The translations under genes were made by a program, and so were the position numbers. From Craspedostauros australis (taxonomy: Eukaryota), in contig JALAGF010003466.1 in assembly GCA_030167865.1 (NCBI GenBank), positions 1-50,037 of the forward strand: DNA of 50,037 nucleotides. The letters are read 5' to 3'. The notes under the pieces were generated by a model that saw only the letters and a list, made by a program, of their open reading frames with translations, searched no databases and had not been told where the DNA came from. Positions 4,254 through 35,942 of the stretch are shown here, piece by piece (position 1 is the first letter of the stretch; the number at the start of each line of letters is the position of its first letter).

Positions 4254-5259
4254 GTGGAACAGAGCACTGTATGTACTCCAGGCAGAAGCAGATTGGCAGA
4301 GAGGAGAAGATCATTCACACTCAACATGCGGCAACACAAACTGACAGGACTCCAAACATCTGCTTGTCGGAAACCAGTTCGGGGAGAAGAACATTGGAGG
4401 ATTATTGCATTCCTCTGGTTTGCACCGTCCGAGCACTGTCTCGATTGTTTCACGTAGCACTCCATGCACTTCGTGTTTGGCTTCGGTCTCATAATGAGCT
4501 TCTTCGTCAAGCTTTCGTACATCGAGTGCAGCTGTCATCGTTCATGAAGTTGTGGAGGAGCGTTCAGCACGAACGATGATTCTCAGCAGTTGTGTTCGAT
4601 TTGGTCGTGGGATACTCATAGACTATGATGGTATGAACTACTACTACGAGTACGAGGAGAGGACGACAACCACCTCCTGTTTCCAATTCAAAGAGACATG
4701 CCATGATCGCGATAGCACATGATATTAAATGGCATCCCTGTCCAATACACGGCATACATAGGGTAGGGTAGAGCAGAGTAGCATACTCGACGAGTATTGC
4801 GCCACTTGTATCACACAGAGTACTGCCATGTGCTGTCTCCCACCGAAGTCTCTTGCTGATGGCGAGAGCTGGATGTTGAACAAAAGTTGTCCCGACCAAC
4901 AAACAGACAGACATCTCCAGTCGTGGGAAGTGCCACACCAAACAGCCACATGTTGCTTCATTCACGACAATACACGATCCACCGAAGAGCAATCAAAAGG
5001 ACACGATTCCGATCCCTGGCACCAAATCTGGTCGTGCGGACCCAAACTCCGAGGCGAAAGGTTCCCACCCACAAGTTGTGCACAAGAGGCGATATGCGAT
5101 GGAATGTGTGGTGGCGAGATCGTTGTGCTCATTGTGTGAATACGAGTGCGAGCGGGCATCATCCTTCGCACACCAGGCATACCATCGATTGATGAAGAGA
5201 TCAAAGGAAGCAAGCAAGCGCCCGAGACAGACAGAGAGAAGAGAGCAAGCGCTGCTACC

Positions 5260-8196: not shown

Positions 8197-10050
8197 TCAT
8201 TGTCCCTGTGCGCTCTCAACTTTTGGCGCGTCAGTTTGTGCGGCTTCGCCCTCAGGTGTTTGTTTCTGCTCCTCGTGCGCGTCAGTTGCTTTTACTGTGA
8301 CAGCAGCTCCGCCGTCGTTTGCGTCGTCCTCGTCGCCATCTCCTGCAACAGGTGGCGCGATATCCTGCACTTTCATGGTGGCCAGCTGACGTTCCACCGA
8401 CTCCAATTCCGCCGCCAGCTCTGGATCATTTTCCAGCTGCGTCGAAAAGTCGACGTCATCTGCCAGCTCTTCGCCGTCCTCAAAGCCGGGATCTTCGAGA
8501 TCGTTCATGTCCTCCATGAATCCCATCCTCGCGGCGGACTCCTCCAGCTCCTTGTGCTTGCGGTCCTGCTTCTTCTCTCTGCGTATCTTCTTCTTGGACA
8601 TGCGCTTCTTCTTGTTAGCCGTCATGCGCGTGTCGCCCTCCTGCGGTTCGTCCTTCACGTCCGCGTTCGAAGGATCCTCCTCGACAACGTCGCCAGCCTT
8701 GTCCTTCCCGACGTTGACCTTCTTGACGAGGACGACGTCCGGCATGACGAAGCTGTTGTTTACGACCTCCTCGACGTCCACGACGCCGACTGAGGACGAC
8801 GTTCCTATCTGGCCGCAGGATGTGAGGTCGTACCCAAGCACGATGTCGCCTGGTTGCAGCAAATGGCCGAGGTGACTGACGCAGGAAAAGCTCTCGTCGT
8901 TGATTCCGAAATCCGATTCGCGGGCGACCTCGACATCCGCCAAGGCGTACTTGGACACGCCTGACGATGGACCGTTGTACTGCTGGGCCTTGTCGTTGTC
9001 TCCCTTGGCGCCTTGCTGGTGAGCGCCGTCGTCGCAAAGCTCGACATCCAATACGACGAAGCGAACGAGCCGCTCCGCGGAGAAGAGGATGGCGTATGCC
9101 TTGTCGCCACCGCCCTTGTAGTAGGACTCCGAGCCCATGTCCACCTGTTCCACGCCCCTGTCCCTCATGGGCGAAGCGTCGAGCATGTGGATGGAGGATG
9201 AGACCTTGCTGGTGAGACACAACCGGCCGGCGAATTTTGAATTGCGCGCCGACTTGTGCACCACGAGGAGGTCATCGCGGCAGATGGGCACCATGTCGCA
9301 AGATATCGTGTGCTTGATGTTGGCCGTGTTGTTCTTGGAATCCGTCGACACCAGCTTCTGGCTCGTCTTGATCTTCATGGGCGCCAGACGGCCGAGGAAG
9401 TGCGCGAATGCCTGTGCCTGCGCCAGGGTGAGGAAGTAGAAGTCCAGGCCGTTGCGACAGGAGTTGATGCGCAGCACGTGCCGACGCACCTCGGGACTGC
9501 GGGCGATGGCCATCTCCAAGGCCAGCAATCCCTTGCGCGGCGAGCCGATGGTGCGATGCTGCCGCAGCTGCACCAACGCCTGCCATGTGCGGTTGGTGTA
9601 CTCCCGGTTGCATTGCGAGCACATCTTCCAGTCCGTCTTGAACTCTACCATGACGCGCTGCTGCACGCGCACGCGCTCGATCTCCGTGCGGATGGTGAGG
9701 CGGATCTTGAGGCGGCGCGAGTGAGGCTCCGTCCACACCCACATGGCGTCCACCACGTGCAGGCCGTGCTTCGAGGCGTTGGACAGCGCCGGGACGTGCT
9801 TGAGGCAGATCTGCATGAGTTCCGGCGACTCCGGCTCGCAGTACTGGTACATGGTGGGCGTGCGGGCGAAGCGGCGGCACTGACGGCACTGCAGGACGAT
9901 GTGGAGGCCGTCCGCGTTGCTCCCGCGCTGCAGCAGGGACTTCAGATCGAACTGCTGCGCCAGACAGCTGGTGCACTGGTTGGCGGCGTTCGGCAGGATC
10001 ATCGTCCCGCACAAGCAGCACGCGATTTGGTTCGTTGTTGCCATCATCAT
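8197..10050 (-). CDS. NMD3: 60S ribosomal subunit export adaptor NMD3
   Basis: IACCLCGTMILPNAANQC, four CxxC pairs, ESPELMQICLK, DAMWVWTEPHSRRLKI, WQALVQLRQ, GLDFYF, SHLGHLLQPGDIVLGYDL, PDVVLVKK. MMM start at 10050. Confidence 0.95.
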   Translation of the reverse strand: MMMATTNQIACCLCGTMILPNAANQCTSCLAQQFDLKSLLQRGSNADGLHIVLQCRQCRRFARTPTMYQYCEPESPELMQICLKHVPALSNASKHGLHVVDAMWVWTEPHSRRLKIRLTIRTEIERVRVQQRVMVEFKTDWKMCSQCNREYTNRTWQALVQLRQHRTIGSPRKGLLALEMAIARSPEVRRHVLRINSCRNGLDFYFLTLAQAQAFAHFLGRLAPMKIKTSQKLVSTDSKNNTANIKHTISCDMVPICRDDLLVVHKSARNSKFAGRLCLTSKVSSSIHMLDASPMRDRGVEQVDMGSESYYKGGGDKAYAILFSAERLVRFVVLDVELCDDGAHQQGAKGDNDKAQQYNGPSSGVSKYALADVEVARESDFGINDESFSCVSHLGHLLQPGDIVLGYDLTSCGQIGTSSSVGVVDVEEVVNNSFVMPDVVLVKKVNVGKDKAGDVVEEDPSNADVKDEPQEGDTRMTANKKKRMSKKKIRREKKQDRKHKELEESAARMGFMEDMNDLEDPGFEDGEELADDVDFSTQLENDPELAAELESVERQLATMKVQDIAPPVAGDGDEDDANDGGAAVTVKATDAHEEQKQTPEGEAAQTDAPKVESAQGQ

Positions 10051-12286
10051 TCTTTCTTCTTTCCTTGATTTCAACTGTACAGCGGAGTGGAGTGGAGGAG
10101 AGTGGAGTGGAATAGGTTGTATAGTTAATCGTATGGTATGGTATGTAGTGTTCAGAGTTGTGCACTTCTTGGGTTCTGATTTGTGAGTTGATGTGGTTGT
10201 TCTGCTGTTTGTGTTGTCAAGGTTGATGTGGGCACGGTTGCACAGTCGTGTCAATCGAACACGTTCGAACAGATTGGAAATACGATCGACTCAATCGAAC
10301 TTCTCCGATGTCTCATGACGATTGACTACATGGACCAATAATTCGGGAACAAAATCGAGAATTGGGACTCGTCGAACCCATCATCATCGTTTTGTTTGGA
10401 ACTGTGTGGGTATGTCTGCACCAGCCTTCTTGGGGAGAGGCCTTTGTGAGAAAAGAGAGCTAGAGGCATGTGCACTTCTGAAGACTTTCTATGTTCTATA
10501 ATATTATAGAATACATCAGATCAGAGCAGAGAGAGATGCACAGTTATATCGAGTGAGACGGTGGGAACTCCAAACTTCCTGTCATCTGGGTCGTTTTGTT
10601 GGCTTCATTGGTGGATAGAACTCGTGGAAAGATCAGCAGTTGCTATCCTTGCGCGTTCTGACATTCGACGATCAGCAGGCATTCAATCATTGTTTTCAAC
10701 CCTACAAAACAAATATTTGCGTCCATCCTTGAAGTCATTTCGTACGTGGATACGATCTCCTTCCTTCGCAAACTCATCGGCCGGTTGGTTCGGATGGTGG
10801 CGTCATCTTGTCTGAAATTAATGCGGTGATGGATTCCCACGATAAGGCAATGCCGCCCATCAACCATTGCATTGAATTCACCGACATCCCAATCTGCCGC
10901 ACTTGCTCTCTGTCTCTCCTTCTCTCGTTACAGCGGAAATCACCATCCACAGCGGTAAATGCCAGCAAGAGTATCGCAAAGGCCTCTTCCATATTCATGT
11001 TGCGCTGCCCATCGAACATCATTCGTCGATATGGAATATTTGCACAGCACAGATTGTTGCTGCACTCTCCAATTATCCGTTCGGTCGTTGAATTCCGTCG
11101 CCAAGAATTGCGTACCATGGCCATGATGTGTCCCATACATTCGTTGATGTCACATAATTGTGCTGTCGATTGTGGATCGATTCCAGCTCGTTCAGAAGCC
11201 GCGGCTGACCGTGATGGCGAAACCAACATGATCAGCGACAGGATACGCCGCACTGCGTTGTCGAACGCAAGAGCACCATCATGATCGGCATGCAACGCGT
11301 CATCGTCGAGGCCGTGCATCGCACCCATCAACTCAGCTTCGCTCGGCCCAGCTCATGGTCGGCAACTGGATCGGCAGGTATTGGAAGGTATCATTGCCAT
11401 CACCATCGTCATGACCGTTGTGTGCCGTGCCATGTGACGAACATGGAGACTGCAATTGCGCGATTGCGCGATTGCGCAATGACGGAAGCAAGAAGAAGGA
11501 TTGCGAAAGAAGTGACATCGATGATGATTATGACGGCTTGATTTGATGCAGTTGCGCACTGCTGGTGCGGAGGCGAAGGATGTGAGGTGCACAGTATCGA
11601 AAATACAGGTAGCGGCGAAGAAGATGTCATTCTCCATGTCGGTGAGGAAGAAAGGTATCCAGGATTCGCAAATGAGTCGAATCATGTGCCAAAGTGCCGA
11701 AGATCTGAAACTCCTGAAGTTCAGAACATGCAAAGTTCCGGAAGGTGTCAAGAAGATGGTTCATCACAAATCACAACACGAATGGTAGTCATGAACAAGT
11801 TTCGAACAGAACAGATGGCAGACGGCATTGGCCATTGAGAAAGCAGAAAAGATACCCGCGGGAGCATGACGACACACAAAAAATGCCAACGAAAAATGAG
11901 TGGCGCAAAATGCCTGCAACGAAGACCAACACGACAGATGCCGGCAGAAGTACACGTCAGTTGCGTGTATTAGGAGTTAACAGACATCTTGAGGCTGTGA
12001 CGACGACTGCGAACAACCATACTCCATGACCAGAGTAGGTGTCTGTGCACGACGAAGGTGCAACAACGACCATCCCGAAGCTGCCGCCCTTCACAAAGGA
12101 AGAGAACAGCACTGGAGTCGAGACACAGACCACTGACCACGTCGTACGCATCGTTCGTCATTTCCCCATCACGGATCCAACACATGGCCGCTTTCCTCAC
12201 ACACCTCCGTCCCTCATCAGACACAAATTCCAAAAACGGAATCAATTCCATCACAACAAATCCAAACCCCAAACCCCAACCACACC

Positions 12287-19518: not shown

Positions 19519-19986
19519 CTAGTTGACGGCTGTGGCAGCCTCACGAGTCTTCTTCCAGATAGCCTCGATCTGATTTTTTATCTTCTCAACCTCCTCGGTG
19601 TTGCGGCGACCCTCATGGTATGGGATCTGTGCCTGAAGCTTGGCGACCTTCTTGGCGTCCTTCCTGTGGTGTGATGCGAACGATTGGAGCATGGGCGATG
19701 TCGGTTCGATGATTGTTGACGCGGTGGTCGATAGTGATGGTGGCAACAAAAGGAGATGCGAGAGTTAGATGAGTGTTCTGCGGTGTAATAAGAACGCAAG
19801 AGCTATGAGGCGGAAGGGCAACATCGCATGCCCCCACTCGTGTCCAGCTCCCTGGTCGCCGCAGATCCAATGCCCATGCACGAAGCCATGCGAGAGCAGC
19901 GCGGCACACCCAGCAATCCATGCGACGACTTACTTGTTGAGGGTGATCTCCTCCTCCTTCTGCTGGCTCTTGCTCTTCTTGCCCAT
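19519..19986 (-). CDS. Two-exon 65-aa basic microprotein of unknown function, complement(join(19519..19663,19934..19986))
   Basis: ATG at 19986; donor AA|GTAAGT at 19933; acceptor CACAG|G at 19664; 198 nt in frame. Product: MGKKSKSQQKEEEITLNKKDAKKVAKLQAQIPYHEGRRNTEEVEKIKNQIEAIWKKTREAATAVN. Mostly G/C-ending codons. Confidence 0.75.
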
Positions 19987-21839
19987 GATGAAATGTGGTG
20001 TGGTGTGATGTGTTTGTTCCTCTTTGGATATTCCTTTCGGAAGTGCTTGCTGCTAGTTGGTTGATTGCTTGTCCTGATCCTTGGATCTTTGGTTTTATGA
20101 GAGAAGGATGGAGAGATCTCAGAGCCAAGCCAGAGATGCACGACGGAACGCAAGGCCAACCCGATGGAGAGGGCGAGAGGAGGGGAAGAAACGACGCAAC
20201 ACGGTCTCTCCCACAACAGAATCGGAACCAGATCTTTGCTCCAGCCTCTGTCTGATGCGGTCCCTGACACCATCCTCTGTCTCACGATGTGATCGTTCTT
20301 CGTGACAGCAATTGTTCTGCAAACCCTCAAGAGCCACTGTTCCCATCATCGCTCACCTGATTCTTGCCGAGCTTCAACAACGGTTTGCACAAGGAAGAAC
20401 GAGGCAGCTCTCCGCGGACAGCCTTCGCATCGCACCCGTCTCTGTCTTCTGCTTCCGTCATGAGACAGCCAACAGAAATTCGGCTTCCCAAAACGTGAGG
20501 GAGCTCTCATTGGCTTCACGAGCAACGAAGATGATCGCTGATCCATTCGTACGAGTGAGTGTACGCGTACGTCGCTGCTTCTTCTATTTGTTCTTTTTCG
20601 TTTCGGTGCTGCCGCTGTTGTCCGCACGCTCTGCCTCGTGGCCTCCTCATGCGTCCTGTTGCCAGCATTCTCGTTGCGTTTTGGGCCATGATGAGCAGTG
20701 TTGCCACTTCAAAGATACGATTCTCGTCAATTCCTCCAGTGGGAAATAGTATCTTCTCTACAGGAAACCGTGAGTTCTGGTTTTATCTGACAGCACCCGT
20801 GTCACTTCTCGTCCAATGAGAAAGGCACAGTTTGATTAAATGAGAAGCCTGTAGTCACGTGCGACTCATCTGCGAAGGGTGGACACGGTTAAGTTCTTCG
20901 TTGTTTAACAGAACCGAAGGCCGGCTTCATCCCACTTTATTTATTTTGCTGAACAAAGAACGTCACTGCGAATGAAAGCCGCTCAATCGACAAATCTGTC
21001 ATCTTGTCGTTGTGGAATCTCAGCCTCCTTCTCTTCCTCCAAATTGAGAATGTTGTGGTACGTAACAATGGCATGACGACAGTACACAAAGGAGACAAAG
21101 GATGTCGCAACAATCCTCATGTTCGGATTCCATCTGCTGGAGGTGTCAGAAATTGGCAGGAACAAGGCAGCCACAAAGAACGCTGCTGCCATGGAAGGGC
21201 GCCGGCCGGCCTCAACGACGTCACGTGTTGCTTGTGTGTGGACAGAGGAGAATACGAATGGGCGAAAAGGTGAGCGGCCGACGGCTTTGGTCTCTTCGGA
21301 TGTGTATCTGTTTGGAGGGTTGACACCGCAGGTTGTCACGTTGCAAATTAGCGACATCATCGTCATCATGGAGGTTCGGAGCGATGGGTTGAGGCTTCTT
21401 GTTTTGTCCGAAACCCTGGACTGGGCGGAGCTCGGCGATCGTTCTTGACCTCGTTTCTGTGTTTGCGTCTGCCTTCTTGTTGTTGGGTGCGGACGAGAAG
21501 GGAGGGTTTGTGGGAACCAACGGGATCAAAGGGTGCGGCCGAAAATCTTGGATGATGGTGTTGGCGATGAGCACGAGTTGTTCGTGCAGCAACTACAGCA
21601 GAATGAAGGAGGAAGCACAACGCTCTCTTCCACGATGATGTGTCCTCCCCCACGTCGTGCTCACAAACTTTTCATCCAATGAACAAGTAAGGAACAAACA
21701 ACGCAACAACAACGACAACAACCGAACGAACGAACAAACCGAGCATCCTACTCACTCAACTCAACTCGACTCACTCACCAACCAACTCACCCAGAGAACA
21801 CACCACTGAGAACAAACACAAAAGCACAGAATCGAAACG

Positions 21840-24800
21840 ATGGGAGCGTCTATGTCCACTGATACTGCAAAGGAGATCAAGGATGTGCCACATGAGCAAC
21901 ATCCCCGCAGTATGAGTGGACGGAAACAATCCCCCGAAAAGCAGGAAGACACCTCTCGCTTTGCGATCTCCACCATCGAAACCGATGAGGAGCCTTCCGT
22001 GTCCTCCGAGGACGAGAGTGCCGAAGAGGATAACGATCTTGAGTATGATGCGGCAGACGAAGATGAGGAGGAAGGTGAGCAAAGATACAAACCGATGTCT
22101 GCTGGTGTACATTGTTTGGTGCCAGCGATCGAAAAGATCTTCCCATGAGATCCAAAAGTGGGCATCAACATTTAGCCCGGGCTGATGTGTGATGGAAAGA
22201 CTTATTGCATGGGCTCCGTCTGTGTTTGGGACGGCGACGGCCTCACATATATCATGCACGAATGCCATGGTATGAGTGCATGTGCTCGATACGATACTCT
22301 ACTGATGTTGGTGCTGGTGCTGCCCATGTTCTGATACAAACCAGACTGACAATCGGTTCACTTGCGACCCTCCTCCAATCCTCCGCTGCTCTCCAACCAC
22401 CCCATACCACCATCATCACCATTGCTATTGCCACGCTACTGCTCCACCAAAACAACTGCACAGACGAGGAATGGAACGAACGCCTCGCCGTCCTCCGCGA
22501 TGCCCGCCAACTCAAGCAATGGGCCGACTTCTATGCCCACCCAGAAGCCCCGGTCGAGGTCGATCCCTTGGCCAAGGCCCGCAACTACTTCAACCGCCCA
22601 TCTGCTCCTCGCTCCAACGTTGAGGAAGAGATGGAGCGCATCCGCATCTTGCAGGATGCGAAGCAGCTCAAGCAGTTTGCTGTGGACTACATGCATCCCG
22701 AACTCCCAGTCAAGGTTACCGATCCTCTTGCAGGGGCTCGCAACTACTTCGGCCGGGCGTCCGCCGAGCCACAAGAATCCAAGGAAGAGGCCGACGAACG
22801 CGCCAGGATCCTGGAAGACGCGGCTGCTCTCAAGAAGCTCGCTGTGGACTACATGCATCCAGAGCTCCCAGTCAAGACCACCGACCCACTCGCCTGTGGA
22901 CGCAACTACTTCGATCGTCCATCTGCTCCACAACAGGAGCTCGACGAAGAAGCCGAGGAGCGTGCCCAAGTCTTGGCAGACGCCGCCGCTCTCAAGCAGC
23001 TTGCTGTGGACTACATGCATCCAGAGCTCCCAGTCAAGACCTCCGATCCGTTTGCCTGTGGCCGCAACTACTTCAGTCGTCCAGCCGCTGATGAATTCGA
23101 GGACGAAGATGACATGGATGAGCGTGATGACATTGTCGCAGATGCCATGAAGCTCAAGGAGCTTGCCATCGACTACATGCATCCGGAGAAGCCAGTTGCT
23201 GTAGATCCGTTGGCATCATGCCGCAACTACTTCGATCGTGCATCTGCCGAACCACAAGAATCCAAGGAAGAGGCTGACGAACGTGCCAGGATCCTCGAAG
23301 ACGCAGCCGCCCTCAAGAAGCTCGCTGTGGACTACTTGCATCCAGAGCTCCCAGTCAAGACCACCGACCCACTTGCTTGCGGTCGCAACTACTTCGATCG
23401 TCCATCTGCACCACAACAGGAGCTCGACGAAGAGGCTGAAGAGCGTGCCAGAGTCCTCGAAGATGCCGCTGCTCTCAAGCAGCTGGCCGTGGACTACATG
23501 CATCCAGAGCTCCCGGTCAAGACCACCGATCCATTCGCCTGTGGACGCAACTACTTCAGTCGTCCAGCCGCTGATGAGTATGAAGATGAGGACGATATGG
23601 ATGAGCGTGATGACATTGTCGCAGACGCCATGAAGCTCAAGGAGCTTGCCATCGACTACATGCATCCAGAGAAGCCAGTTGTTGTGGATTCATTGGCATC
23701 ATGCCGCAACTACTTCGATCGTGCTTCCGCTGAACCGCAAGAGACTGCCGAGGAGGCGGAGGAACGCTCCAGGATCCTTGAAGACGCAGCCGCCCTCAAG
23801 AAGCTCGCTGTGGACTACATGCATCCAGAGCTCCCAGTCAAGACCACCGACCCACTTGCTTGCGGTCGCAACTACTTCGATCGTCCATCTGCTCCACAAC
23901 AGGAGCTCGACGAAGAAGCCGAGGAGCGTGCCCAAGTCCTGGCAGACGCCGCTGCTCTCAAGCAGCTTGCTGTGGACTACATGCACCCAGAGCTCCCGGT
24001 CAAGACCACCGATCCGTTCGCCTGTGGCCGCAACTACTTCAGCCGCCCTGCTGCCGACGAGTATGAAGATGAAGATGACATGGACGAACGTGATGATATC
24101 ATGGAGGACATGATGAAGCTCAAGGAGCTTGCCATCGACTACATGCATCCAGAGAAGCCGGTTGCTGTGGATCCGTTGGCATCTTGCCGCAACTACTTCG
24201 ATCGTGCTTCCGCCGAACTGCAAGAATCCAAGGAAGAGGCCGACGAACGCGCCAGGATCCTGGAAGACGCCGCCGCCCTCAAAAAGCTCGCTGTGGACTA
24301 CATGCATCCAGAGCTCCCAGTCAAGACCACCGACCCACTTGCTTGCGGACGCAACTACTTCGATCGTCCATCTGCTCCACAACAGGAGCTCGACGAAGAA
24401 GCCGAGGAGCGTGCTCGTGTCTTGGCAGACGCCGCTGCTCTCAAGCAGCTTGCTGTGGACTACATGCATCCAGAGTTCCCAGTCAAGACCACCGATCCAT
24501 TCGCCTGTGGCCGCAACTACTTCAGCCGCCCATCCGCCGATCACGAAGCAGAGACCGAAGAACGCGAGCTCATCCTGGCCGAAGCCGCCGCCCTCAAGCA
24601 GCTCGCAGAAGACTACCAGCATCCCGAACGTTCGGTCCAGACCACCGATCCATTCGCGTGCGGACGCAACTACTTCGATCGTCCATCTGCTCCTGGTCAT
24701 GAGGAGCACATCCATTCGCATGTCGCCATGGATCATGATGAGCACGTGTACCACGACCATCATGGATACCACTACTACGACGACGAGCATCATCACCACC

Positions 24801-25024
24801 ATCACCATCCGGACGACCTTTCGCATGGTCACAGCGATCACTTCGAGATGGAGGAGGACTTCTCCAAGGAGTTCGCTTCGTTCCGCCAGAGCTTGGTCGA
24901 GACCGAGCCGTTCAAGGGCGATCATCCCCAAGAGGAGATCGTCACGGAGAACGAACAGGAGGGCAAGCTATCCCGCTCTCCATCTTCCGTCATGCTCTTC
25001 GATGGCGGAGCCGAAGTCAACTAA
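21840..25024 (+). CDS. Tandem-repeat protein of unknown function (14 x ~54-aa DYMHPE/RNYF repeats, His-rich tail), join(21840..22074,22464..25024), 931 aa
   Basis: Donor G|GTGAG at 22075 and acceptor CACAG|AC at 22463 join the acidic exon 1 (MGASMS...DEDEEE) to DEEWNERL. Repeats are intact and in frame, with many synonymous differences between copies. Confidence 0.9.
22478..24706 (+). repeat. Coding tandem repeat: 159-162 bp units with a 483-bp higher-order period
   Basis: Equivalent unit starts at 22796, 23279, 23762 and 24245 (483-bp spacing = 54+54+53 aa). Confidence 0.95.
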
Positions 25025-25586
25025 AGGACCATGCCGAGCCCTATGTCTTTGGTCGGTTCCATCTTATCCAAAGACACAAACCCACCACAACAAATACATT
25101 CATCTTCACAAGTGGCTCCTCATCCATTCAGTTGCTTTGGCACAAAAAAAAAACAGCACACGAATACACATTACTTCTACTCTCCAATCCCCCACACCAA
25201 CAACCTCCAACGCAACTGTACATTACATTGCATCACGAAATGCAACAAGCATCACCCACATGGACACAATGGCCATTTGTCACCAATACCTAATTTTAAA
25301 TCCCAAATACATGCACAACAAGTACGTTCATTAGATTCATGCAGCGTCTGGCATGTTGGTGGCATTTCGCAGTTCTTCCAGTTGCGGATCTTTACATGTT
25401 TCCAATCGCTCCACTCCTCCACATGCTCTCTCAATCGACATGTCTCACAACAGCAACACCAAGAGCATGCAAACAGCTTCTGACAAATGATGTGACATTA
25501 AATGATGATCATATTGGTTGGTCGGATGGCCATTCGCTACTCTGGACTTTTCCGCCACGATCCCGCGCTCGCACCAACGAACGTGC

Positions 25587-27647
25587 TTACGACGAAATCC
25601 TCTCATAGTTTGAACTTCGGTGATAGTACAGGTACCCTTCCGTGTTGATCCCCTCCTCCTGACGTCGGTACCGCACATCCCGCCACTGCTCGGAATCATT
25701 CTCGACGAGACTGAGCCAGTCGCCGAGGTTGCAATCCTCATCGTCCGGGCTGTCGTAGCAGCATTGCGAGCAGCAGGGACAGCTGATCTCCTGCTGCGCG
25801 TCAATAGCCGCCTGACCTTCGCAAAAGGGACAGTTGAAGGCCTCGTTGCCGCAGTCGGCCGTCATGACGCTGATGGGACAATTGGCGTCCGTGGCTGGTC
25901 CGAGGGTGCCGTTGAGCATGTTGTTGTCGACCGTGAGGAGGGTGAGGCTTGGCATGTTGACAATCTCCGGGGGGACGTTGCCCGTGAGCTGGTTGCGGTT
26001 GATCTGGAGGTACTTGAGTTCCGGCAGGGTGGAGAGGACGGTGGGGATCTCCTTGCTGAAACGGTTGAAATCGAGGTCGAGGAGGATCAGCTTGTCCATG
26101 TCGGCAAAGTAGGAGGGGATGGTGCCAGTGATTCCGAGCGACTGCAGGCTGAGGTACTTGAGCTCCGTGAGGCTGGCGAGCCAGTCCGGGGCGGGGTAGG
26201 AGTCTCCGAATCCCATCTTGGAGAGCATCAAGGCTCTAAGCTCGACGAGGCTCTGCAAGGTCGTTGGGATCTTGCTGTCGAGCGAGTTGTGGGAGACGTC
26301 GAGGTGGGTGAGATGAGAGCTGAGGAAGTGCAAGGATCGTGGAAGCTCGCCGCGCAGGACGTTGGACTTGACGTCGATGTACTCCAAGACTCCGTCGTAG
26401 TTCCGGGTGGCCTCATTGTTCCATTCCTCGGTCGAACCGATGGTGTTGTGGTGAACGTCGAGATGCTTGAGGGCTTTGAGTTCGGTGAACCAGGCGTTGG
26501 GGAGCGGTCCGGCGAGCTCATTGTTGTGCAAGGAAAGCACCTCGAGATTTTTGAGCTTGTCGAAGGTGCTGTGGTTGATGTTGTCCTCGAGGAAGTTGTT
26601 GCCGAGGTATATCTCCTCGAGGAGCCTGAGGTCCTCGATGGCGGACAGACCGCCCAGGAGGGAGTTGTGATCCATGGCGAGAACCTCCAGGACCCTGCAC
26701 TTGTTGATCTCCGGAGGGATCACGCCCTTGATGTTGTTGTTGGAGAGGGAGAGGACCCTGAGGTTGGTGAGCCCGCCGATGGTGGATGGCAGGGTGCCGG
26801 CCACGAAGTTGTACGCCATGGATAGATGCGAGAGCTCGGCGAAGATGGGCAGCTCGTTCTCCAGGCTGAGCTTGTTGACATCGAGCTCGATCTTCTCCAT
26901 GTACTTCATGGCCTCCAGCTCCGGCACGGGGAGGTACCCGAAGAGGCCCATCGACGGGAACCGGACCTGTATCATGCGCTTGCCGTCGTCGCAGATGAAG
27001 CCTAGCCGCTGGGGTTCCCGGGGTCTGTCCTTGCCATCGGGCATGAATCGGTCCTTGTACTTGGCGTTCCAGGTGCATTCTGACGAGTCCGGATCGAGGA
27101 GGTTGAGCTCGACGACCACGGACTGCGGCATGGTGGAGAAGATGAAGGCGGCCACGGCGTAGCGCTGCACGAAGGGGTCGTAGGCGTGGTTGGTGGGGTC
27201 GGAATCGGCTTTCGGCTTGGGCGTCTGGATGTTGTCCTTTCCCAGGATCCACTCTAGGGCCTTGGACTGCGGAGAGACGGGGTTCTGGAAGACGGCCTCG
27301 CTGCCGCCGTAGACGTTCTTGATGAGGAACAGGGCCTCTCCCAGGCCGGTGAGCTTGTTAGTGTTGGCGTTGCCAGTGGAGCTGGACGACTTGGACGAGG
27401 AGTCCTTGCGTCCCAAGGTGGCGATGAGGATGATGGCGATGATGACGGCGACCGTTCCGATGGCCGCCAGGAGGATGTTGCGCTTGCCCCTGGTGCCGCC
27501 GCCGTTGATCGCCTGCTCCGTCTTCATGTCCTCCACGTCCGGCAGCTGGTTGCCGTCGTTGCTCATGCTTGGCGCCAACGAGATGTCCTGGATCTCCTCC
27601 AGCCCCACGTCGGCCATGATGTTCGTCTCTGTGTCTGGCGTTTGCAT
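25587..27647 (-). CDS. Leucine-rich-repeat type II membrane protein (diatom receptor-like LRR type)
   Basis: KR followed by a TM helix (ILLAAIGTVAVIIAIILIATL), SPQSKALEW, QRYAVAAF, SECTW cap, many LxxLxLxxNxLxGxIP repeats, and C-terminal ADC...CPCCSQCC. Confidence 0.92.
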   Translation of the reverse strand: MQTPDTETNIMADVGLEEIQDISLAPSMSNDGNQLPDVEDMKTEQAINGGGTRGKRNILLAAIGTVAVIIAIILIATLGRKDSSSKSSSSTGNANTNKLTGLGEALFLIKNVYGGSEAVFQNPVSPQSKALEWILGKDNIQTPKPKADSDPTNHAYDPFVQRYAVAAFIFSTMPQSVVVELNLLDPDSSECTWNAKYKDRFMPDGKDRPREPQRLGFICDDGKRMIQVRFPSMGLFGYLPVPELEAMKYMEKIELDVNKLSLENELPIFAELSHLSMAYNFVAGTLPSTIGGLTNLRVLSLSNNNIKGVIPPEINKCRVLEVLAMDHNSLLGGLSAIEDLRLLEEIYLGNNFLEDNINHSTFDKLKNLEVLSLHNNELAGPLPNAWFTELKALKHLDVHHNTIGSTEEWNNEATRNYDGVLEYIDVKSNVLRGELPRSLHFLSSHLTHLDVSHNSLDSKIPTTLQSLVELRALMLSKMGFGDSYPAPDWLASLTELKYLSLQSLGITGTIPSYFADMDKLILLDLDFNRFSKEIPTVLSTLPELKYLQINRNQLTGNVPPEIVNMPSLTLLTVDNNMLNGTLGPATDANCPISVMTADCGNEAFNCPFCEGQAAIDAQQEISCPCCSQCCYDSPDDEDCNLGDWLSLVENDSEQWRDVRYRRQEEGINTEGYLYYHRSSNYERISS

Positions 27648-29023
27648 TGTTCCTCTACTCTACTCTTCTACACTCGGCTAATATTTCTGTTCCTGCCGTT
27701 CCTGCTGTTCCTGTTATGATGACTATCAATGTGGTTGCGAGTATGGACACGATCACGGCTGTGAGTATGGAAGTGTCTGGGTTTATGGGATGAATGCTGC
27801 TGCAGTTGGCGCGAATTTGTCTCTCCTTTGCCTTTCCTCTTTGCGTTTGTGTGTCGCAGTTTCAGATTCTTTTGATTTTCGGAGTTGCACAGCTCAACAC
27901 GGTGTGACGCAACGCAGCGCAACAAATGCATCCGCCAAAGTCGACCAAAGTCAATCGTGTTGCGTTCGTGCATTCCAATCAGCGGGATTTTTTTGTCCAC
28001 GTTCCGTCATTTGCGCGGAACACGTTCCCAACAAATTGGACCACATCAACTGCGACTCGCTGCGCAAGTGGGAAAGGTTGATTCCTCTCCGCAAGAGAAG
28101 CGACGCGCTGGTCGTCATCAAAATTGGAGTGTCTCCGAGCGGTTTCGATTGCCCCTTTCCCATCAAATTTGGTTACGATGTCATTCGACGACAGATCGAG
28201 GTGTAAGAAGCGTGGACGAAGCATAGGAGGAGAGTGCGTGGACCATGAAATATAGTATAATTGGTCAGCATCATCTTGCACAACTTTGATGATGGATGCG
28301 GATAGGGCAAGATGCCTAAAACAGAGCAACTACTCCAACTTCTCTTCTGATAGCAGGATCGCAGACCCCAACTTCACGCTCTCCCAGCAATGACGACGAC
28401 AGAGATTGATCACGATCGTCACACTTTCCTTCTTCTTGAATGTGAAGTCCGTGACAGATGTGCGCAATGTCGCCCTTTCCCACCATGGGAAACGGACAGC
28501 CACCTGCCAATGCCAAATTCGTCAGGTGTTGTTGCCACCGAGGTGCGCAGAGAGCCACCATGTGATACACATACAAATGATGAACAAATTGTCAACGAAC
28601 ATATTTCTGGTCACGTCTCATTCATGGATAGATCGACTCAATGGAGTACTTCACTGGTTTTGTTGACTAAATGGACCTAACGCGGTTCACGCGGGATGGG
28701 CAATCCTGCATACAGAAAATCCGAACCCGTGCAAAGCGAAGATCATCACACAAACCAACCGGCGAAAAGCACATCACAAGAAGATCGCCTCATCCCTGGT
28801 TCCAGTTCACCACGTGTTGCGCTCAGGGTCTCCACATGATTTGACAGTAGCCGCCTCCACAACGGCAACATCGCAACAACATCACAACAAGCAACACTGC
28901 AACAACACTTCATAAAATCAGAAGAAACGAACATCAACAGACCAACATCAACAAGCAAGTAAACCGTATCAAACCGAAGCATTCATCTCTCATCATCATC
29001 GCCACAGTAACAATAACGACACT

Positions 29024-30630: not shown

Positions 30631-30735
30631 TGATTGAGGGCACCTTCGATGAATACGAACAGAGAGATCGATTGCGATCGATTGCGATAATAGTGTTGGC
30701 AGCAGCAGCAACAGCAACACAAGTGGAAGCAGAAA

Positions 30736-32778
30736 ATGAAGCAAGAAGAAGATAACGCACCGGTCGGTCCGGAACCAACCGACGATGGCGCTGCTTCTGT
30801 GGATCCGCAGCAGCAGCAGCAGAAACAGCAGCAGCCGCAGCAGCCAGTGCAAACACCGACGGCACAACCAGAAGACTCCAATGAACCATGGTTCACCCAG
30901 ATTGCCAACAGCGAGATGGCCCGTTTGGCCGTGCATGCGCTGGTACACCTGCTGTGCTTGGCACTGTACGTCATTCCTGTGGTCTTCGAGGATCATCCCT
31001 ACGGTGGACCCACGCTGGACGAGCTGCACATCATGAGCGCGGACAATCGCGACATCCATGGCTTCTACGAGCTCGACGGCGGCACAGCAACCTCAACGAA
31101 GGACAGCCTCCAAACGGAATGGAACACGCTGCGGCAGATCTTCCAAAACGACTACTGGGGGCGCCCCATGGCATCGGAATCGTCGCACCGCTCATGGCGC
31201 CCGCTCACCGTCCTCACATTCCGGTACCTGCAAGGCTGCTTCACCAACTTCGAATTGACGACGCATCGTTGCGTCAACATCCTCACGCACGCGGCGGCGG
31301 CGCACATGGTGGGCTTGTTGGCCGCCCATTTGACGGCACGACCGCAACAGCGCTTCTGGATCACCATCTGGACCAAGATCGTCTTCATCCTGCACCCCAC
31401 GCACGTCGAGGTCACGGCCAACGCCGCCAATCGCAATCATATTCTGGCCGTGCTGTGCAGCGTCGTCCTTGCCGTCGCGTGTCGGTCCCATACGACTTTG
31501 TCGTTGTCATGGTATTGCGCCGTTCTCGTCATGGGGTACCTGTGCAGCGAGACGTTTCTGTTCCAGATTCCTGCCGTCATGGCCACGATCGTCGTGTGTC
31601 ACTATTATCAGCAGCAGATGGGTCGGTCATGCAAGGAGAATGTGGATGTTGCGAAGAATCGTGACGGACTCTTTGCCACGATCTACGATTTGAGCATCGC
31701 GTTGGTCCACGTCTTGCCTCGCATCGTCGTCCTCGCCCTTTCCATGGCAGTCTACGTCGGTGGTCGATGGTTTTTGGATACGTTATCGATTCCCGAAGGC
31801 TTGATCCGACCTGCGGAGAATCCATACTTCACCTTCGAAGGAGAACACCGCGTGCGCAACTACGCCTACGTCGTCCTCATCCATCTCGGCAAGGCCTGGG
31901 GATGGGATCCCATCGGTTTCTCCCACGAATACGGATTCGATTGCATCCCCGCCGTGCAGGATTGGTCCGATCAGCGCTTCCGATCGTTTCACACCATCTG
32001 CATGCTCGCCATTTTGGTATTGTCGCTCGTGCTGGCATTTGCATACCCGCGCAAGCTCTTGGCCTTGGTCGCGCTGCATTGGGCATGGATGACGACCTTG
32101 CTGCCCATCTCCGGCATCCTCAAGGTCGGAACGTTCGTATCGGACCGCATGGCCGTGCCGTTCAGCGTCATCACGAGCATCTGGATTGGCAACGCCTTGG
32201 CCTTTTGGATGACGCGCGCGTACCGCCATCTACCCGCCAAACCCTTGCAGCTCGTCGTCGTGGCGTGGTTGTTGCTGCAATCGACGATGAAAATCCACAC
32301 GCGCACGTTGCAATGGATGGACTCCGTCTCGTTGTTGCAATCCTCCATCGCCACGTGTCCGCGCTTCGCCAAGGCCCACATGGAACTGTCCAAGATCCAT
32401 TCGGGTCTCATCGCCGATCTTTACAACCTCAACACGGCGCAGCAGCATCTCGAATTGGCGCACGCCATCGATCCCGATACGCTGTGCGACGTGCATCAAC
32501 AGTATGCTCACATCGCCATCCAGCGCAACGACTTTGAGCGGTATGAAAACGAGCTCGTCGAAGCCATGCTGTGTCCCTTCTCGATGGGCGGCGCCATGGA
32601 TATGTGGAACAAGTACTGGAGTTTGTTGACGAGTTCCGCCGCCAATGAAGAGCAGCGGCTGGATGCGGAGGAGCGGCAGCAGCAGTACATTCAGATCATT
32701 CAAACAAGGGCGCGGGCGCAGCAAGAGAAGTTGGATCGGGCGGAGAAGGCGAAGGACAAGCGGTCGCCGTTTGTGTGA
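30736..32778 (+). CDS. TMTC-like (DUF1736) GT-C protein O-mannosyltransferase with a short TPR-like tail
   Basis: TLDE acidic motif after TM1, IFQNDYWG, SHRSWRPLTVLTFR, LHPTHVEVTAN, AENPY, KVGTFVSDR, CPRFAKAH; multiple TM helices. Confidence 0.85.
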   Translation: MKQEEDNAPVGPEPTDDGAASVDPQQQQQKQQQPQQPVQTPTAQPEDSNEPWFTQIANSEMARLAVHALVHLLCLALYVIPVVFEDHPYGGPTLDELHIMSADNRDIHGFYELDGGTATSTKDSLQTEWNTLRQIFQNDYWGRPMASESSHRSWRPLTVLTFRYLQGCFTNFELTTHRCVNILTHAAAAHMVGLLAAHLTARPQQRFWITIWTKIVFILHPTHVEVTANAANRNHILAVLCSVVLAVACRSHTTLSLSWYCAVLVMGYLCSETFLFQIPAVMATIVVCHYYQQQMGRSCKENVDVAKNRDGLFATIYDLSIALVHVLPRIVVLALSMAVYVGGRWFLDTLSIPEGLIRPAENPYFTFEGEHRVRNYAYVVLIHLGKAWGWDPIGFSHEYGFDCIPAVQDWSDQRFRSFHTICMLAILVLSLVLAFAYPRKLLALVALHWAWMTTLLPISGILKVGTFVSDRMAVPFSVITSIWIGNALAFWMTRAYRHLPAKPLQLVVVAWLLLQSTMKIHTRTLQWMDSVSLLQSSIATCPRFAKAHMELSKIHSGLIADLYNLNTAQQHLELAHAIDPDTLCDVHQQYAHIAIQRNDFERYENELVEAMLCPFSMGGAMDMWNKYWSLLTSSAANEEQRLDAEERQQQYIQIIQTRARAQQEKLDRAEKAKDKRSPFV

Positions 32779-33105: not shown

Positions 33106-35942
33106 CTACTCCTTGGAGGATGCTTCCGACTTCATCACTTCGAACTTTTGTCGCGTCAATGCCAAACCAAAGTAGCTCATGACCCATGACGCAGCGCTGA
33201 TGAGAAGCTGCGCGCGGAATACCGTGGCGATGTTCTTGCCGTCCAGCCCGAATCGGCTCAGCGCTTCTTCTCCCGTGCGTGCCACCGGACCGCGATGACG
33301 ACCGCCCGCATCAAAGATCAGGTCCTCAAACTCGTTCAATGACAATCCTTCGAATCCCCATCGGATGAGACCCACCTTCGGGACCCAGCGCAGCAATCGC
33401 GGCGTATTCTCTTCGGAGATGTTGCGCCCATCGAAGATGATGTTGAGGACCAGGACGGCCGGGAAGAGGGCCAGGGCAGTGTCGGAGTTGGGACTCACGG
33501 CGCCCAGGAACAGGCCGAAGGATTGGCATGTGATGGTGTGCAGGGAGGTCAGGGTGAGGAAGCGTCTCAGCTTCTTGGCCGTGCCGTTGATGCCCGTGAA
33601 GTAGGACACCATGATACCGAAGATGCTTTGGAAGAAGAAGACGGGTGGCATTTCGGATATGGCCTTGCTGACGAAGTACGGGAGACTGCTGTACATCTTG
33701 GTCGCGATCTCACCCGACACGATGGCCTTTTCCTTGGGGAAGGCACGTATTGTCGATGCGATGGCCATGTTGGCTGCGCCGATGGCGATCAGCGAGAGCA
33801 AACCGAAACGATCCTGAATCGATGCTTGGTTGTTGCCAATGCTGTAGATTCCGCCGTAGATGATCGCCAACGTGACCTGCTGGACCGTCATGATGATGAG
33901 CTTGGCCTTGGCACGGAAATTCTCCCGCAACGATCGGCTGAACAGCAATCGGAATTGCTTAAAGATACCCGCCTTGCGTCCTCGCTTGCCTTCGCCATTG
34001 AACACGAGGAGGGCGGTGTCGTCGTCAATCTTTTTCGATTTGAGACCCAGATCGATCTTGGCATCCGCGGCGAGCTTGGCAAGGTTGGCGATGCGTGAAT
34101 GCATGTCCTCATCCGTCTCCTTGGGAAGCTGGGACATGGAGATGCAATCCAGGACGTGCTCCGACGTTCCCATCTCGGCCGGCGCCTTGCAATTCTGGCC
34201 TGCGAAGTACCCTCGCACCTTGCTGACTTCACCAAAGTACATCTGCTTGCCTTCCGACAAGAGCAGAAGATCGTCGAAGGACCCGAAGACGTGCTGACTG
34301 GGCTGATGAATGACGGCGACGATGGTCTTGCCGGCATCCGCCATCTTGCGCAGGTACTCCACCAACGTCGTCGCGGCCGTGCTATCCAACCCGCTGGTGG
34401 GTTCATCGAGGAACAGCACGGACGGACTCGAGATGAGCTCGCACGCGATGGACAACCGGCGACGTTCGCCACCCGAAATGCCGCGCACCTTGTCGCCGCC
34501 CACGATGGTGTCGGCCGACTTTTCCAATCCCATCTGCAGCAGCAGATCCTCGACGATGGCATCGCGCTGCGATTTGGCCACGATGCTGCCGAGCTTCAAT
34601 TCGACGCGGAAGTGCAACGTTTCACGCACGGTCATGTGGGGGAAGAAGTTCATGGACTGTGGCACGAAGGCGGCCGGGATCAGGGAGTCGCCCGAGACGG
34701 GCTCGCCGTTGATGAAGCGTTCGCCGAAGAGGTTCTGACCGGATTTCTCCTTGATGCGTCCCGCGAGGGCGTGCAGGACTGTGGATTTGCCCGCGCCGGA
34801 AGGTCCCATGATGGCCAGCATGCGTCCTGGTTGGGCTCTGCCATGGATGGATCCATCGAGGATGAGACGCGTTTTGTTGTTGCCGTTCTTGCCATTTTGC
34901 TTGTTCTTTTTTTTGTTTGGAATCTCCAATCGAAGGCCGCGGAACCCAAGATCGACCTTCTCGAAGTCGCCATGGACCGCCGTGGCTTCGTTGCCACCGC
35001 GGATGCTGTTGTCTGTTCATGCGTATTCATGTGTTGGTGATTGGGAGGGTGGAAAGCCAGAGTATGCATGTGAGTATAATATGAGGTTGCGAATGAGATG
35101 GTGAATGGCACATAGAATGTGTGCTCAATGGAAGTCGGCAAGCCACCCGTTGGGACAGTGACGTGCACTTCACGAACAGAGATCTGCCTAGTTCAGAAAT
35201 GCTCATCATGAGAAAGTGTGGGTTGTCGAGCAGTGGACACTGTGGATGTTTCGAATGCTGCAATTGCCGAGAGTCTCACGACATCCCCATGGATTCGACT
35301 ACGATCGGAAGAGGAATGATGGATGGACGGATGAGAGAATGTGCATTGCCGGAAGTGCAAGTTCCATTTGCTCTCCAAGGCTGCGCTGAAATGTATTCAT
35401 GCACACGCACGCAGTCTCACCCACTTACCATAGTAAACTCTCTTCCGTCTGCTCGAAGTGAACGTCGACACGAAATATCGCAGGATGATGATCGCAACGA
35501 AGACTACAAGGCTGTAAAAGAGGACGCCATCACCATCCAGCAGCTGGTCCAGCAGTTGATCCAGCAGTTGATCCATAGAAATGGCGTCCTCCTGAACCTC
35601 CGCTTCCTTCTGCTGCCGATTGCGCATGATCCGTTTCCAAATGGGAGGTTTTCGTTGCTCGTCCTGCGATGGTCTCTGCATGATGCGTTCCCAACCATCA
35701 TCAAAGGCCTGACCCATGGCATTCCATCCATCTTGTATCGTCTCCATGAACGTACCTTCGATAATGCTCTTTTTCGTGCTGCCTCCAGCAGAATTGCTGC
35801 TGCTGTTGCTGCCTGGCGTCTCCATGCGGCTCGCCAAGTTCGTTGCAGCGCGTTGGGCATGGATCGTGCCGCACAGTAGCGCGACGCAGACAAGCCAGAG
35901 GGCCAATCGACTTCGCGTCGATCCGAACCGACGTTGCTTCAT
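33106..35942 (-). CDS. ABCG (White-family) half transporter resembling plant ABCG7, complement(join(33106..35012,35429..35942)), 806 aa
   Basis: Walker A GPSGAGKST, signature ISGGERRR, Walker B LFLDEPTSGLD, IHQP, C-terminal TMD. The upstream exon joins via G|GTAAGT (35428) and AACAG|AC (35013) in matching phase. Confidence 0.9.

Follow-up and report, generated by a model that had tools for sequence, protein, structure and literature searches.

No function is known for about half of the genes in diatoms. What, then, is encoded by a gene in which a repeat of no named kind recurs fourteen times, and what might its product do? The gene in question occupies positions 21840-25024 (+ strand) of a 50,037-nucleotide stretch of contig JALAGF010003466.1 from the diatom Craspedostauros australis (assembly GCA_030167865.1; this whole stretch is hereafter the window). 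We found that 21840-25024 is an expressed nuclear diatom gene, that its repeat is under strong purifying selection, and that the repeat type and the protein family are both new, with no match in Pfam (2025 copy), the PDB or our full-text searches of the literature; the sequences themselves are already public, as hypothetical proteins only. As to its role, we hypothesize, at somewhat less than an even chance, that the protein is a membrane-tethered multivalent scaffold, each unit of which docks one copy of a putative client.

A spliced gene for a 14-unit repeat protein

The coding part of exon 1 (21840-22074, +; 78 codons plus one base) specifies the MGASMS start, an SGRK motif and an acidic, Ser-rich head; that of exon 2 (22464-25024, +) extends to a TAA stop at 25022-25024, within a + strand frame that the open-reading-frame scan of the window finds open from 22193 to 25024. 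Between them lies a 389-base GT..AG intron of phase 1 (22075-22463, +), with GTGAGC at its 5' side and CAG at its 3' side, the removal of which joins G/AC in frame; read without splicing, the exon 1 frame meets a stop after 24 further codons. The spliced two-exon product has 931 residues, and the exon-2 translation (P0001) has 852. Two transcript-level observations together confirm this intron, which a sequence-only reading of the window had placed at the same positions. First, P0012, a transcriptome-derived protein with the source label Craspedosta..., is the same as the spliced model over residues 1-190 and spans the junction DEDEEE/DEEWNERL without mismatch. Second, in run X1, a contig joint from 22072 to 22462 (cut +2) skips 389 bases that have GT..AG ends, and the intron interior is uncovered. 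Run X1 is the sole public run with the stretch; its data are contigs, presumed to be RNA, that are uninformative on expression level, strand and transcript ends. A contig that starts at 21681 supplies a 5' leader (21681-21839, +) with an in-frame TGA at 21807 and no upstream ATG, so that the ATG at 21840 is the first one that the transcript-covered leader offers.

The repeat array (22472-24709, +) comprises 14 units of 51-54 residues, each of which consists of a helix of about 25 residues that reads ERxxILxDAxxLKxxAxDY, then HPExPV...D...GRNYFxRxSAPE, and then an acidic linker. The exon-2 translation contains 14 HPE anchors at a spacing of 51-54 residues, and both Y-x-HPE and RNYF are present in 14 of 14 units. 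Cys is absent from units 1 and 2, and each of units 3-14 carries a single one, placed two or three positions ahead of NYF (as ACGRNYF or ASCRNYF). The sequence-only reading had described this anatomy (the MGASMS start, an acidic head, 14 units, the invariant Y-x-HPE and RNYF, a single Cys in units 3-14) and was correct at every point that we checked in the translation. By Tandem Repeats Finder, the array has a period of 162 bases (12.6 copies, 22667-24687, 68% matches, score 1292) and a super-repeat of 483 bases (3.7 copies, 89% matches, score 2909). Three copies of this three-unit super-repeat (units 3-5, 6-8 and 9-11; 22790-24235, +) are approximately 90% identical in DNA and 93-95% in protein.

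Beyond the array are a His-rich block (24695-24844, +) with 20 His in 50 residues that terminates in a conserved DHFxMEED motif, a short tail helix EDFSKEFASFRQ (24854-24889, +; helix 800-811 in the AlphaFold2 model, at low confidence), and the motif LSRSPSSVMLF (24968-25000, +), which lies seven residues from the C terminus and is conserved in the tails of homologues. The 931-residue protein is of 106 kDa and is strikingly acidic: Glu, Ala and Asp make up 13.2%, 12.8% and 10.7% of its residues, Asp and Glu together 24%, and it has a net charge of -120 and a pI of 4.5. No signal peptide is apparent by eye.

The repetition leaves its mark on the transcript data. Over residues 191-566, the P0012 assembly jumps between repeat units (one such join reads THLLEDAA). 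Short-read transcript assemblies collapse or mis-join the array, and unit counts in database entries are therefore unreliable. Also, one contig of run X1 carries mismatches at 24271, 24274 and 24277 (C>G, C>T and C>T), 31-37 bases from the contig end, which most likely represent cross-placement among repeat copies and not a variant.

Selection on the unit and its conserved residues

Among the three-unit blocks 3-5, 6-8 and 9-11, synonymous divergence (dS) is 0.45-0.50 and non-synonymous divergence (dN) is 0.025-0.036, for a dN/dS of 0.05-0.08; block 4 (units 12-14) was excluded from this comparison, its register being shifted by unit 14. A dS of this size alongside a low dN/dS indicates that the block copies are not recent and that the protein sequence is tightly held. 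The low ratio between internal blocks also argues that the repeat is more than a product of chance.

With a hidden Markov model trained on the units of the window protein and taken through a single iteration, we gathered 1569 units; they come from 121 family proteins, that of the window among them, at 9-18 units per protein. The consensus order in these units is E-R-x-x-[IV]-L-x-[DE]-A-x-x-L-K-x-x-A-x-x-Y-x-H-P-E-x-P-V-...-D-...-G-R-N-Y-F-x-R-x-S-A-P-E, followed by an acidic linker. In the helix part, the consensus residues are conserved at R 85%, L 80%, L 94%, K 90%, A 98% and Y 80%; after the helix, at H 80%, P 99%, E 96%, P 71%, V 85% and D 81%; and in the distal part, at G 70%, R 98%, N 84%, Y 80%, F 95%, R 95%, S 91% and A 92%. 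The most constrained residues thus lie in the non-helical part as much as in the helix, and those that are near-invariant family-wide are P, E, R, F, R, A, L and K, rather than His or Cys.

A protein family of diatoms

A word-indexed search yielded 294 matches at E<=1e-3 among proteins of near-equal length (468-1491 residues being eligible) and 585 matches at E<=1e-10 among shorter ones; with a Thalassiosira member as the query, there were 222 at E<=1e-20. Organism names and lengths were taken from the best 120 matches of each of these three sets, and among the matches so listed every relative that has an organism name is from a diatom, pennate or centric. The pennates are Nitzschia, Cylindrotheca, Pseudo-nitzschia, Seminavis, Mayamaea, a Stauroneis-like diatom and Craspedostauros; the centrics are Skeletonema, Thalassiosira, Cyclotella, Discostella, Stephanodiscus, Chaetoceros, Odontella and Attheya. 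The names Thalassiosira pseudonana and Phaeodactylum tricornutum do not occur among these best 120 matches per search, beyond which there remain unlisted or unnamed proteins. Meaningful names of relatives are all 'hypothetical' or 'unnamed', save for a few functional-sounding JGI names that are scattered and mutually inconsistent. We saw no domain fusions, and the longest protein among the best 120 of the 294 near-length matches has 1099 residues. In a profile search with an alignment of 35 three-unit stretches (A1) against 1.84 billion representative proteins, 388 matched at E<=1e-3, of which 315 remained at E<=1e-10 and 216 at the strictest cut-off, E<=1e-30; this library carries no organism names, and its tail of matches could include non-diatom members.

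Homologues in which both conserved ends are present (47 proteins) contain between 3 and 17 units, and we summarize the architecture of the family as an MGxxx[ST] start and an acidic head, then 3-17 units, often a His-rich tail, and a C-terminal [RK]S[PA]SSV[MN]LF. One full-length member, P0007, comes from Nitzschia sp. Nitz4; it starts MGTAQST and has the C-terminal motif. This strain is described as non-photosynthetic (10.1101/2020.05.28.115543). On that description, the retention of a full-length protein in Nitz4 argues against a role in photosynthesis.

A full-text literature search, the reach of which does not extend to supplementary tables, found no paper on this repeat family, although a homologue might figure in some table of expression or proteome data; the passages of PMC5501833 that we considered are unrelated. 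The novelty that we claim covers the repeat and the protein family, for which there is no profile, structure or paper match, and not the cellular role.

Predicted structure of the unit

For three units modelled by AlphaFold2 with alignment A1, the mean predicted local distance difference test score (pLDDT) is 77.7 and the predicted template modelling score (pTM) is 0.30; helices at 2-22, 52-76 and 106-130 exceed a pLDDT of 90, and the segments between them are at 50-75. The whole exon-2 protein, modelled with 60 homologues (alignment A2), has a mean pLDDT of 59.6 and a pTM of 0.25: this model contains 14 helices of about 25 residues and the short helix 800-811, and the remainder is non-regular at a pLDDT of 35-65. 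Neither model shows inter-unit packing or solenoid stacking, and the invariant motifs sit in the non-regular segments. Direct-coupling analysis of 2612 unique units (effectively about 1490) returned mainly local i,i+3/4 couplings; long-range couplings (P23-R37, P23-F40 and K14-D31) are weak, at z of about 3. In our reading, each unit combines a single stable helix with a conserved segment in which there is a degree of local order but no strong fold of its own, a pattern that would be expected of a module that becomes ordered on a partner.

Searches against known folds, families and motifs

Consistent with the sequence-only reading, which had not recognised the repeat as ankyrin, TPR, ARM, LRR or EF-hand, a Pfam scan of the window protein at E<=1 returned no ankyrin, TPR, ARM/HEAT, LRR or EF-hand family. 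A solenoid or other classical repeat can be rejected on this absence of a profile match and on the unpacked units of the AlphaFold2 models (pTM 0.25-0.30). Foldseek found no match to the three-unit model in the PDB at E<=0.001, and the highest Z that VIA-align 2 reached over 48,161 chains was 3.4, all of its hits being single long helices; the power of both searches is low, as the model has no tertiary structure. Sequence searches of the PDB with the single protein and with the three-unit profile returned nothing beyond chance matches and ones resembling His tags (lowest E 0.22 and 1.1, respectively), and the ESM Atlas gave no usable match to the whole protein or to residues 109-216. In sum, these searches gave the repeat, which the sequence-only reading had left unnamed, no Pfam family, PDB sequence or paper, and no fold match above background.

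Two Pfam families do pass their whole-protein cut-offs, DUF7479 in the window protein and RIIa in homologues, because many matches of 12-17 residues are summed; we reject both. For DUF7479 (PF24292, 60 positions), the whole-protein sum is 32.9 bits versus a cut-off of 27, but no single stretch passes; 2 of the 35 three-unit pieces match, and a piece scores 13.4 bits (E 0.083). For the RIIa docking/dimerisation domain (PF02197), summed whole-protein scores are 24-54 bits versus a cut-off of 22.4 in all eight homologues scanned, 11 of the 35 pieces match at E<=1, and the window protein itself has no match at that level; only profile positions 20-34 of 38 are involved, in stretches of 12-17 residues, none of which passes singly. 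There is a weak resemblance between D-P-x-x-F-G-R-N-Y-F-x-x-L in the diatom unit and P..D...F...YF in helix II of the RIIa profile, but AlphaFold2 does not predict the helix-turn-helix of that family for the diatom unit.

Short motifs fared no better. The window protein contains six PSAP sequences that might suggest a P(S/T)AP late-domain or ESCRT adaptor, but family-wide there are 0.25 such motifs per unit, and the motif is missing altogether from 96 of the 314 proteins that have five units or more. The LKK[LV] of the helix is reminiscent of WH2 actin motifs; there is no Pfam match, and the spacing is different by eye.

Conserved N and C termini

A further observation concerns the two ends of the protein. 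The window protein fits the N-myristoyltransferase consensus (Met1-Gly2, a small residue 3, Ser/Thr at 6, a true start). Among 148 complete-looking homologues (those with a Met start and a stretch of 40 residues or more ahead of the first unit), 80 start with MG, and 79 of these 80 read MGxxx[ST]; the N-myristoylation consensus noticed by the sequence-only reading is thus a feature that its relatives have kept. Downstream of the start, many homologues share [ST]xEI[TKN]D and [SN]G[RPQ]K. Members from the Thalassiosirales lack Gly2: their N terminus reads M(R/K)T.GT..ST, frequently with a Cys next, and continues to GGRKT; the protein may be attached or regulated differently in that order.

At the other end, [RK]S[PAL]S.[VI].[LMF][FYCL] is present in 228 of 290 tails (each of at least 60 residues), at a median of seven residues from the C terminus, and its commonest forms in these tails are RSPSSVMLF (92), RSPSSIMLF (36) and KSASSVNLF (17). 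We take LSRSPSSVML to be a putative site for basophilic kinases, the pattern of which it fits (a hydrophobic residue at -5, R/K at -3, the Ser itself and another hydrophobic residue at +4); it also resembles a 14-3-3 mode-1 site. At least eight His in 40 residues are found in 111 of the 290 tails, and DHFxM[DE][DE] in 107. Most Thalassiosirales members have no more than two His in any 50-residue stretch. Several of them (P0008, P0018, P0020, P0025, P0027, P0046 and others) have a nearly His-free tail that ends KKSASSVNLFGLSE.

A proposed membrane-tethered scaffold and its alternatives

How might these features work together? That the protein is a lipid-anchored cytosolic scaffold seems reasonable, because the N-myristoylation consensus is conserved and there is no signal peptide by eye. 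In the scheme that we favour, Gly2 would be N-myristoylated and the N terminus held at the cytosolic face of a membrane; the body would be a flexible chain in which 14 near-identical modules serve for docking, each of them one helix plus a conserved extended motif that is probably ordered only on binding, and each binding one copy of the putative client. The protein would thereby concentrate or space many client copies along the membrane, with unit number setting valency and reach. At the opposite end, the C-terminal motif is a likely switch or additional attachment point, whether for regulation or for docking, and the protein would then be a tether with two ends. The putative client would lie outside photosynthesis.

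Several points weigh against this scheme. Myristoylation is predicted from a match to a consensus. The residues after the start are acidic, and the window protein has neither a polybasic stretch nor a nearby Cys, so that myristate alone may bind the membrane weakly. The Thalassiosirales lack Gly2, hence the anchor is not family-wide, and 68 of the 148 complete-looking N termini do not start with MG, many of these resembling mis-called starts. Extreme acidity would also suit the binding of ions or polycations without any protein client. Finally, direct-coupling analysis also finds local couplings inside the supposed loop, at positions 31-45; the non-helical part may possess local structure that AlphaFold2 missed, or the unit may be a small autonomous fold.

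We weighed four other explanations. The first, which we consider improbable, is that of a cortical or membrane skeleton that assembles by itself: helices from separate molecules would meet at their small-residue (Ala) faces and build a lattice or filament beneath a membrane, with no need of a client. The composition of the helix is suggestive in this regard (Ala at 98% in one position and 57% in another, and L, L and Y at a spacing of 3-4), as are the conserved motifs at both ends and a unit number that differs among species. Yet the AlphaFold2 helices are unpacked, both with three units (pTM 0.30) and with 14 (pTM 0.25), a net charge of -120 would oppose self-packing in the absence of counter-ions, and a lattice gives no account of HPExPV...GRNYFxRxSA as the most conserved part of the unit.

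The acidity itself is the starting point for a second explanation, that the protein binds cations or polycations at high capacity, or protects as hydrophilins do, much as dehydrin or calsequestrin would; here the acidic linkers and the His tail would bind Ca2+, Zn2+ or polyamines at the membrane surface. In its favour are Asp and Glu at 24%, the charge of -120, the pI of 4.5, 20 His in 50 tail residues, His-rich tails in 111 of 290 homologues, and a chain that is largely non-globular. We nevertheless judge this to be quite unlikely, for an ion buffer requires neither P, R, F, R, S and A at fixed spacing nor a dN/dS of 0.05-0.08, and most Thalassiosirales have no His-rich block. Nor does the Pfam scan support it: no dehydrin or LEA family appears for the window protein at E<=1, or among the best 25 of 99 families for the 35 three-unit pieces.

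A third explanation, proposed by the sequence-only reading, is that of a metal or redox sensor with a His/Cys ligand site in each unit. In the window protein, the His of HPE and the loop Cys are found together in 12 of 14 units, and Cys is present in at least 80% of the units in 70 of the 314 proteins with five or more units. That reading had allowed that a lack of His/Cys conservation in homologues would count against it, and for Cys this is what we observed. In a later collection of 3143 units from 374 family proteins, the window's included, Cys lies between HPE and NYF in 54%, the His of HPE is present in 82%, and both occur in 45%; 16 of the 314 proteins have no Cys-bearing units, and 47 have them at 20% or less. 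In the 1569-unit set, Phe is nearly as common as Cys at the main Cys column (F 30%, C 34%). Moreover, one His and one Cys fall short of a full metal site. A His/Cys site in every repeat is accordingly unlikely on these alignments; the pairing of His and Cys in each repeat appears, from the same unit frequencies and Cys-free proteins, to be a trait of some lineages and not of the family, and we hold out very little hope for the sensor. Metal binding by the His-rich tail is more plausible than by the His and Cys of the repeat, although that tail is lineage-specific.

The last explanation, a membrane coat of the perilipin, apolipoprotein or LEA-like type with 14 amphipathic helices lying flat on a lipid droplet or vesicle, draws on the regular spacing of helices in an otherwise unfolded chain and on the lipid-anchor consensus, but is highly doubtful in that the helices have a modest hydrophobic moment (muH 0.21-0.45; that of one helix is equalled by 37% of shuffles) and a net charge (z) of -4 to +2, most of them being neutral to acidic, 13 of 14 score below the HeliQuest lipid-binding threshold of 0.68 for 0.944 x muH + 0.33 x z, and the conserved non-helical motif is left unaccounted for.

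Genomic neighbourhood

The genes around 21840-25024 encode NMD3, a DnaJ protein, two LRR proteins, an ABCG-type transporter, a glutamine synthetase and an alpha/beta hydrolase; these are ordinary nuclear genes that give no functional hint. Pfam families were assigned to frames at 5140-7872 (+; helicase-associated (HA) domain), 8200-10290 (-; NMD3), 25590-27659 (-; LRR_8/LRR_1), 33109-35016 (-; ABC transporter plus ABC-2 membrane) and 42553-45327 (-; LRR_6), and no Pfam family was found at E<=1e-5 in those at 19616-20281 (-) and 30694-32775 (+, 694 residues). Within 22350-25334 there are also other long frames, in the remaining + frames and on the opposite strand (there with one of 422 residues, 23699-24967, -), that are by-products of the composition of the repeat, and not separate genes.

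We also noted a 1286-base contig in run X1 that spans 24664-25400 and continues beyond, at a depth of 170; most of the rest of the gene is at about 12-50. This contig covers the end of the coding region and an intergenic stretch, heading toward the convergent LRR gene at 25590-27659. The repeat gene and the LRR gene may have overlapping 3' ends, or there may be a separate, abundant transcript at 24664-25400+.

Comparison with known systems

Diatom-specific cell biology is short of cytosolic components, and this family offers an expressed, strongly constrained and so far diatom-only candidate; its clean modular anatomy (an anchor, a valency array, a possible regulatory end) makes direct experiments easy to design. 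Its closest known counterparts are as follows.

Sfi1, which binds centrin, and nebulin, which binds actin, are long arrays of short helical units that each take up one copy of a partner; their periods are 23-35 residues, and they are basic. The diatom protein is likewise an array of helical motif units, and its super-repeat grouping is as in nebulin, but its period is another, it is acidic instead of basic, there is no sequence or profile match, and the partner of its unit is putative.

MARCKS, the BASP1/GAP-43 class and AKAP12/gravin are N-myristoylated, acidic, natively unfolded membrane scaffolds that are regulated by basophilic kinases, and for which the second membrane signal is a polybasic effector domain or palmitate. 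A Gly2 anchor consensus, high acidity and little globular structure are what the diatom protein has in common with these; it differs in its 54-residue tandem unit, in having neither a polybasic domain nor a palmitate signal, and in the absence of a Pfam match.

EPYC1, PYCO1 and CsoS2 are built from tandem units of about 50-60 residues, each having a short helix or sticker motif in an unfolded chain, and unit number sets their valency; they are basic, reside in plastids or carboxysomes, and bind Rubisco. By description only, the diatom protein is alike: tandem units, each with a helix, in an unfolded chain. PYCO1 is described as a multivalent linker of a CO2-fixing condensate (PMC10288592). Unlike these linkers, the diatom protein is very acidic, has no targeting presequence, carries a lipid-anchor consensus and is kept in a non-photosynthetic diatom. 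There is also a bolder idea, one that we put forward as a long shot: the protein may be a diatom-specific, lipid-tethered sticker-and-spacer scaffold that organises a condensate or a regularly spaced array of a single client protein at the cytosolic side of a membrane peculiar to diatoms, for example at the silica deposition vesicle or in the cortex beneath the frustule, with unit number (3-17 among species) setting size or spacing and the C-terminal phospho-motif acting as a switch. If so, the logic of the Rubisco linkers would have an acidic parallel in the cytosol, put to use in the patterning of cell wall or cortex.

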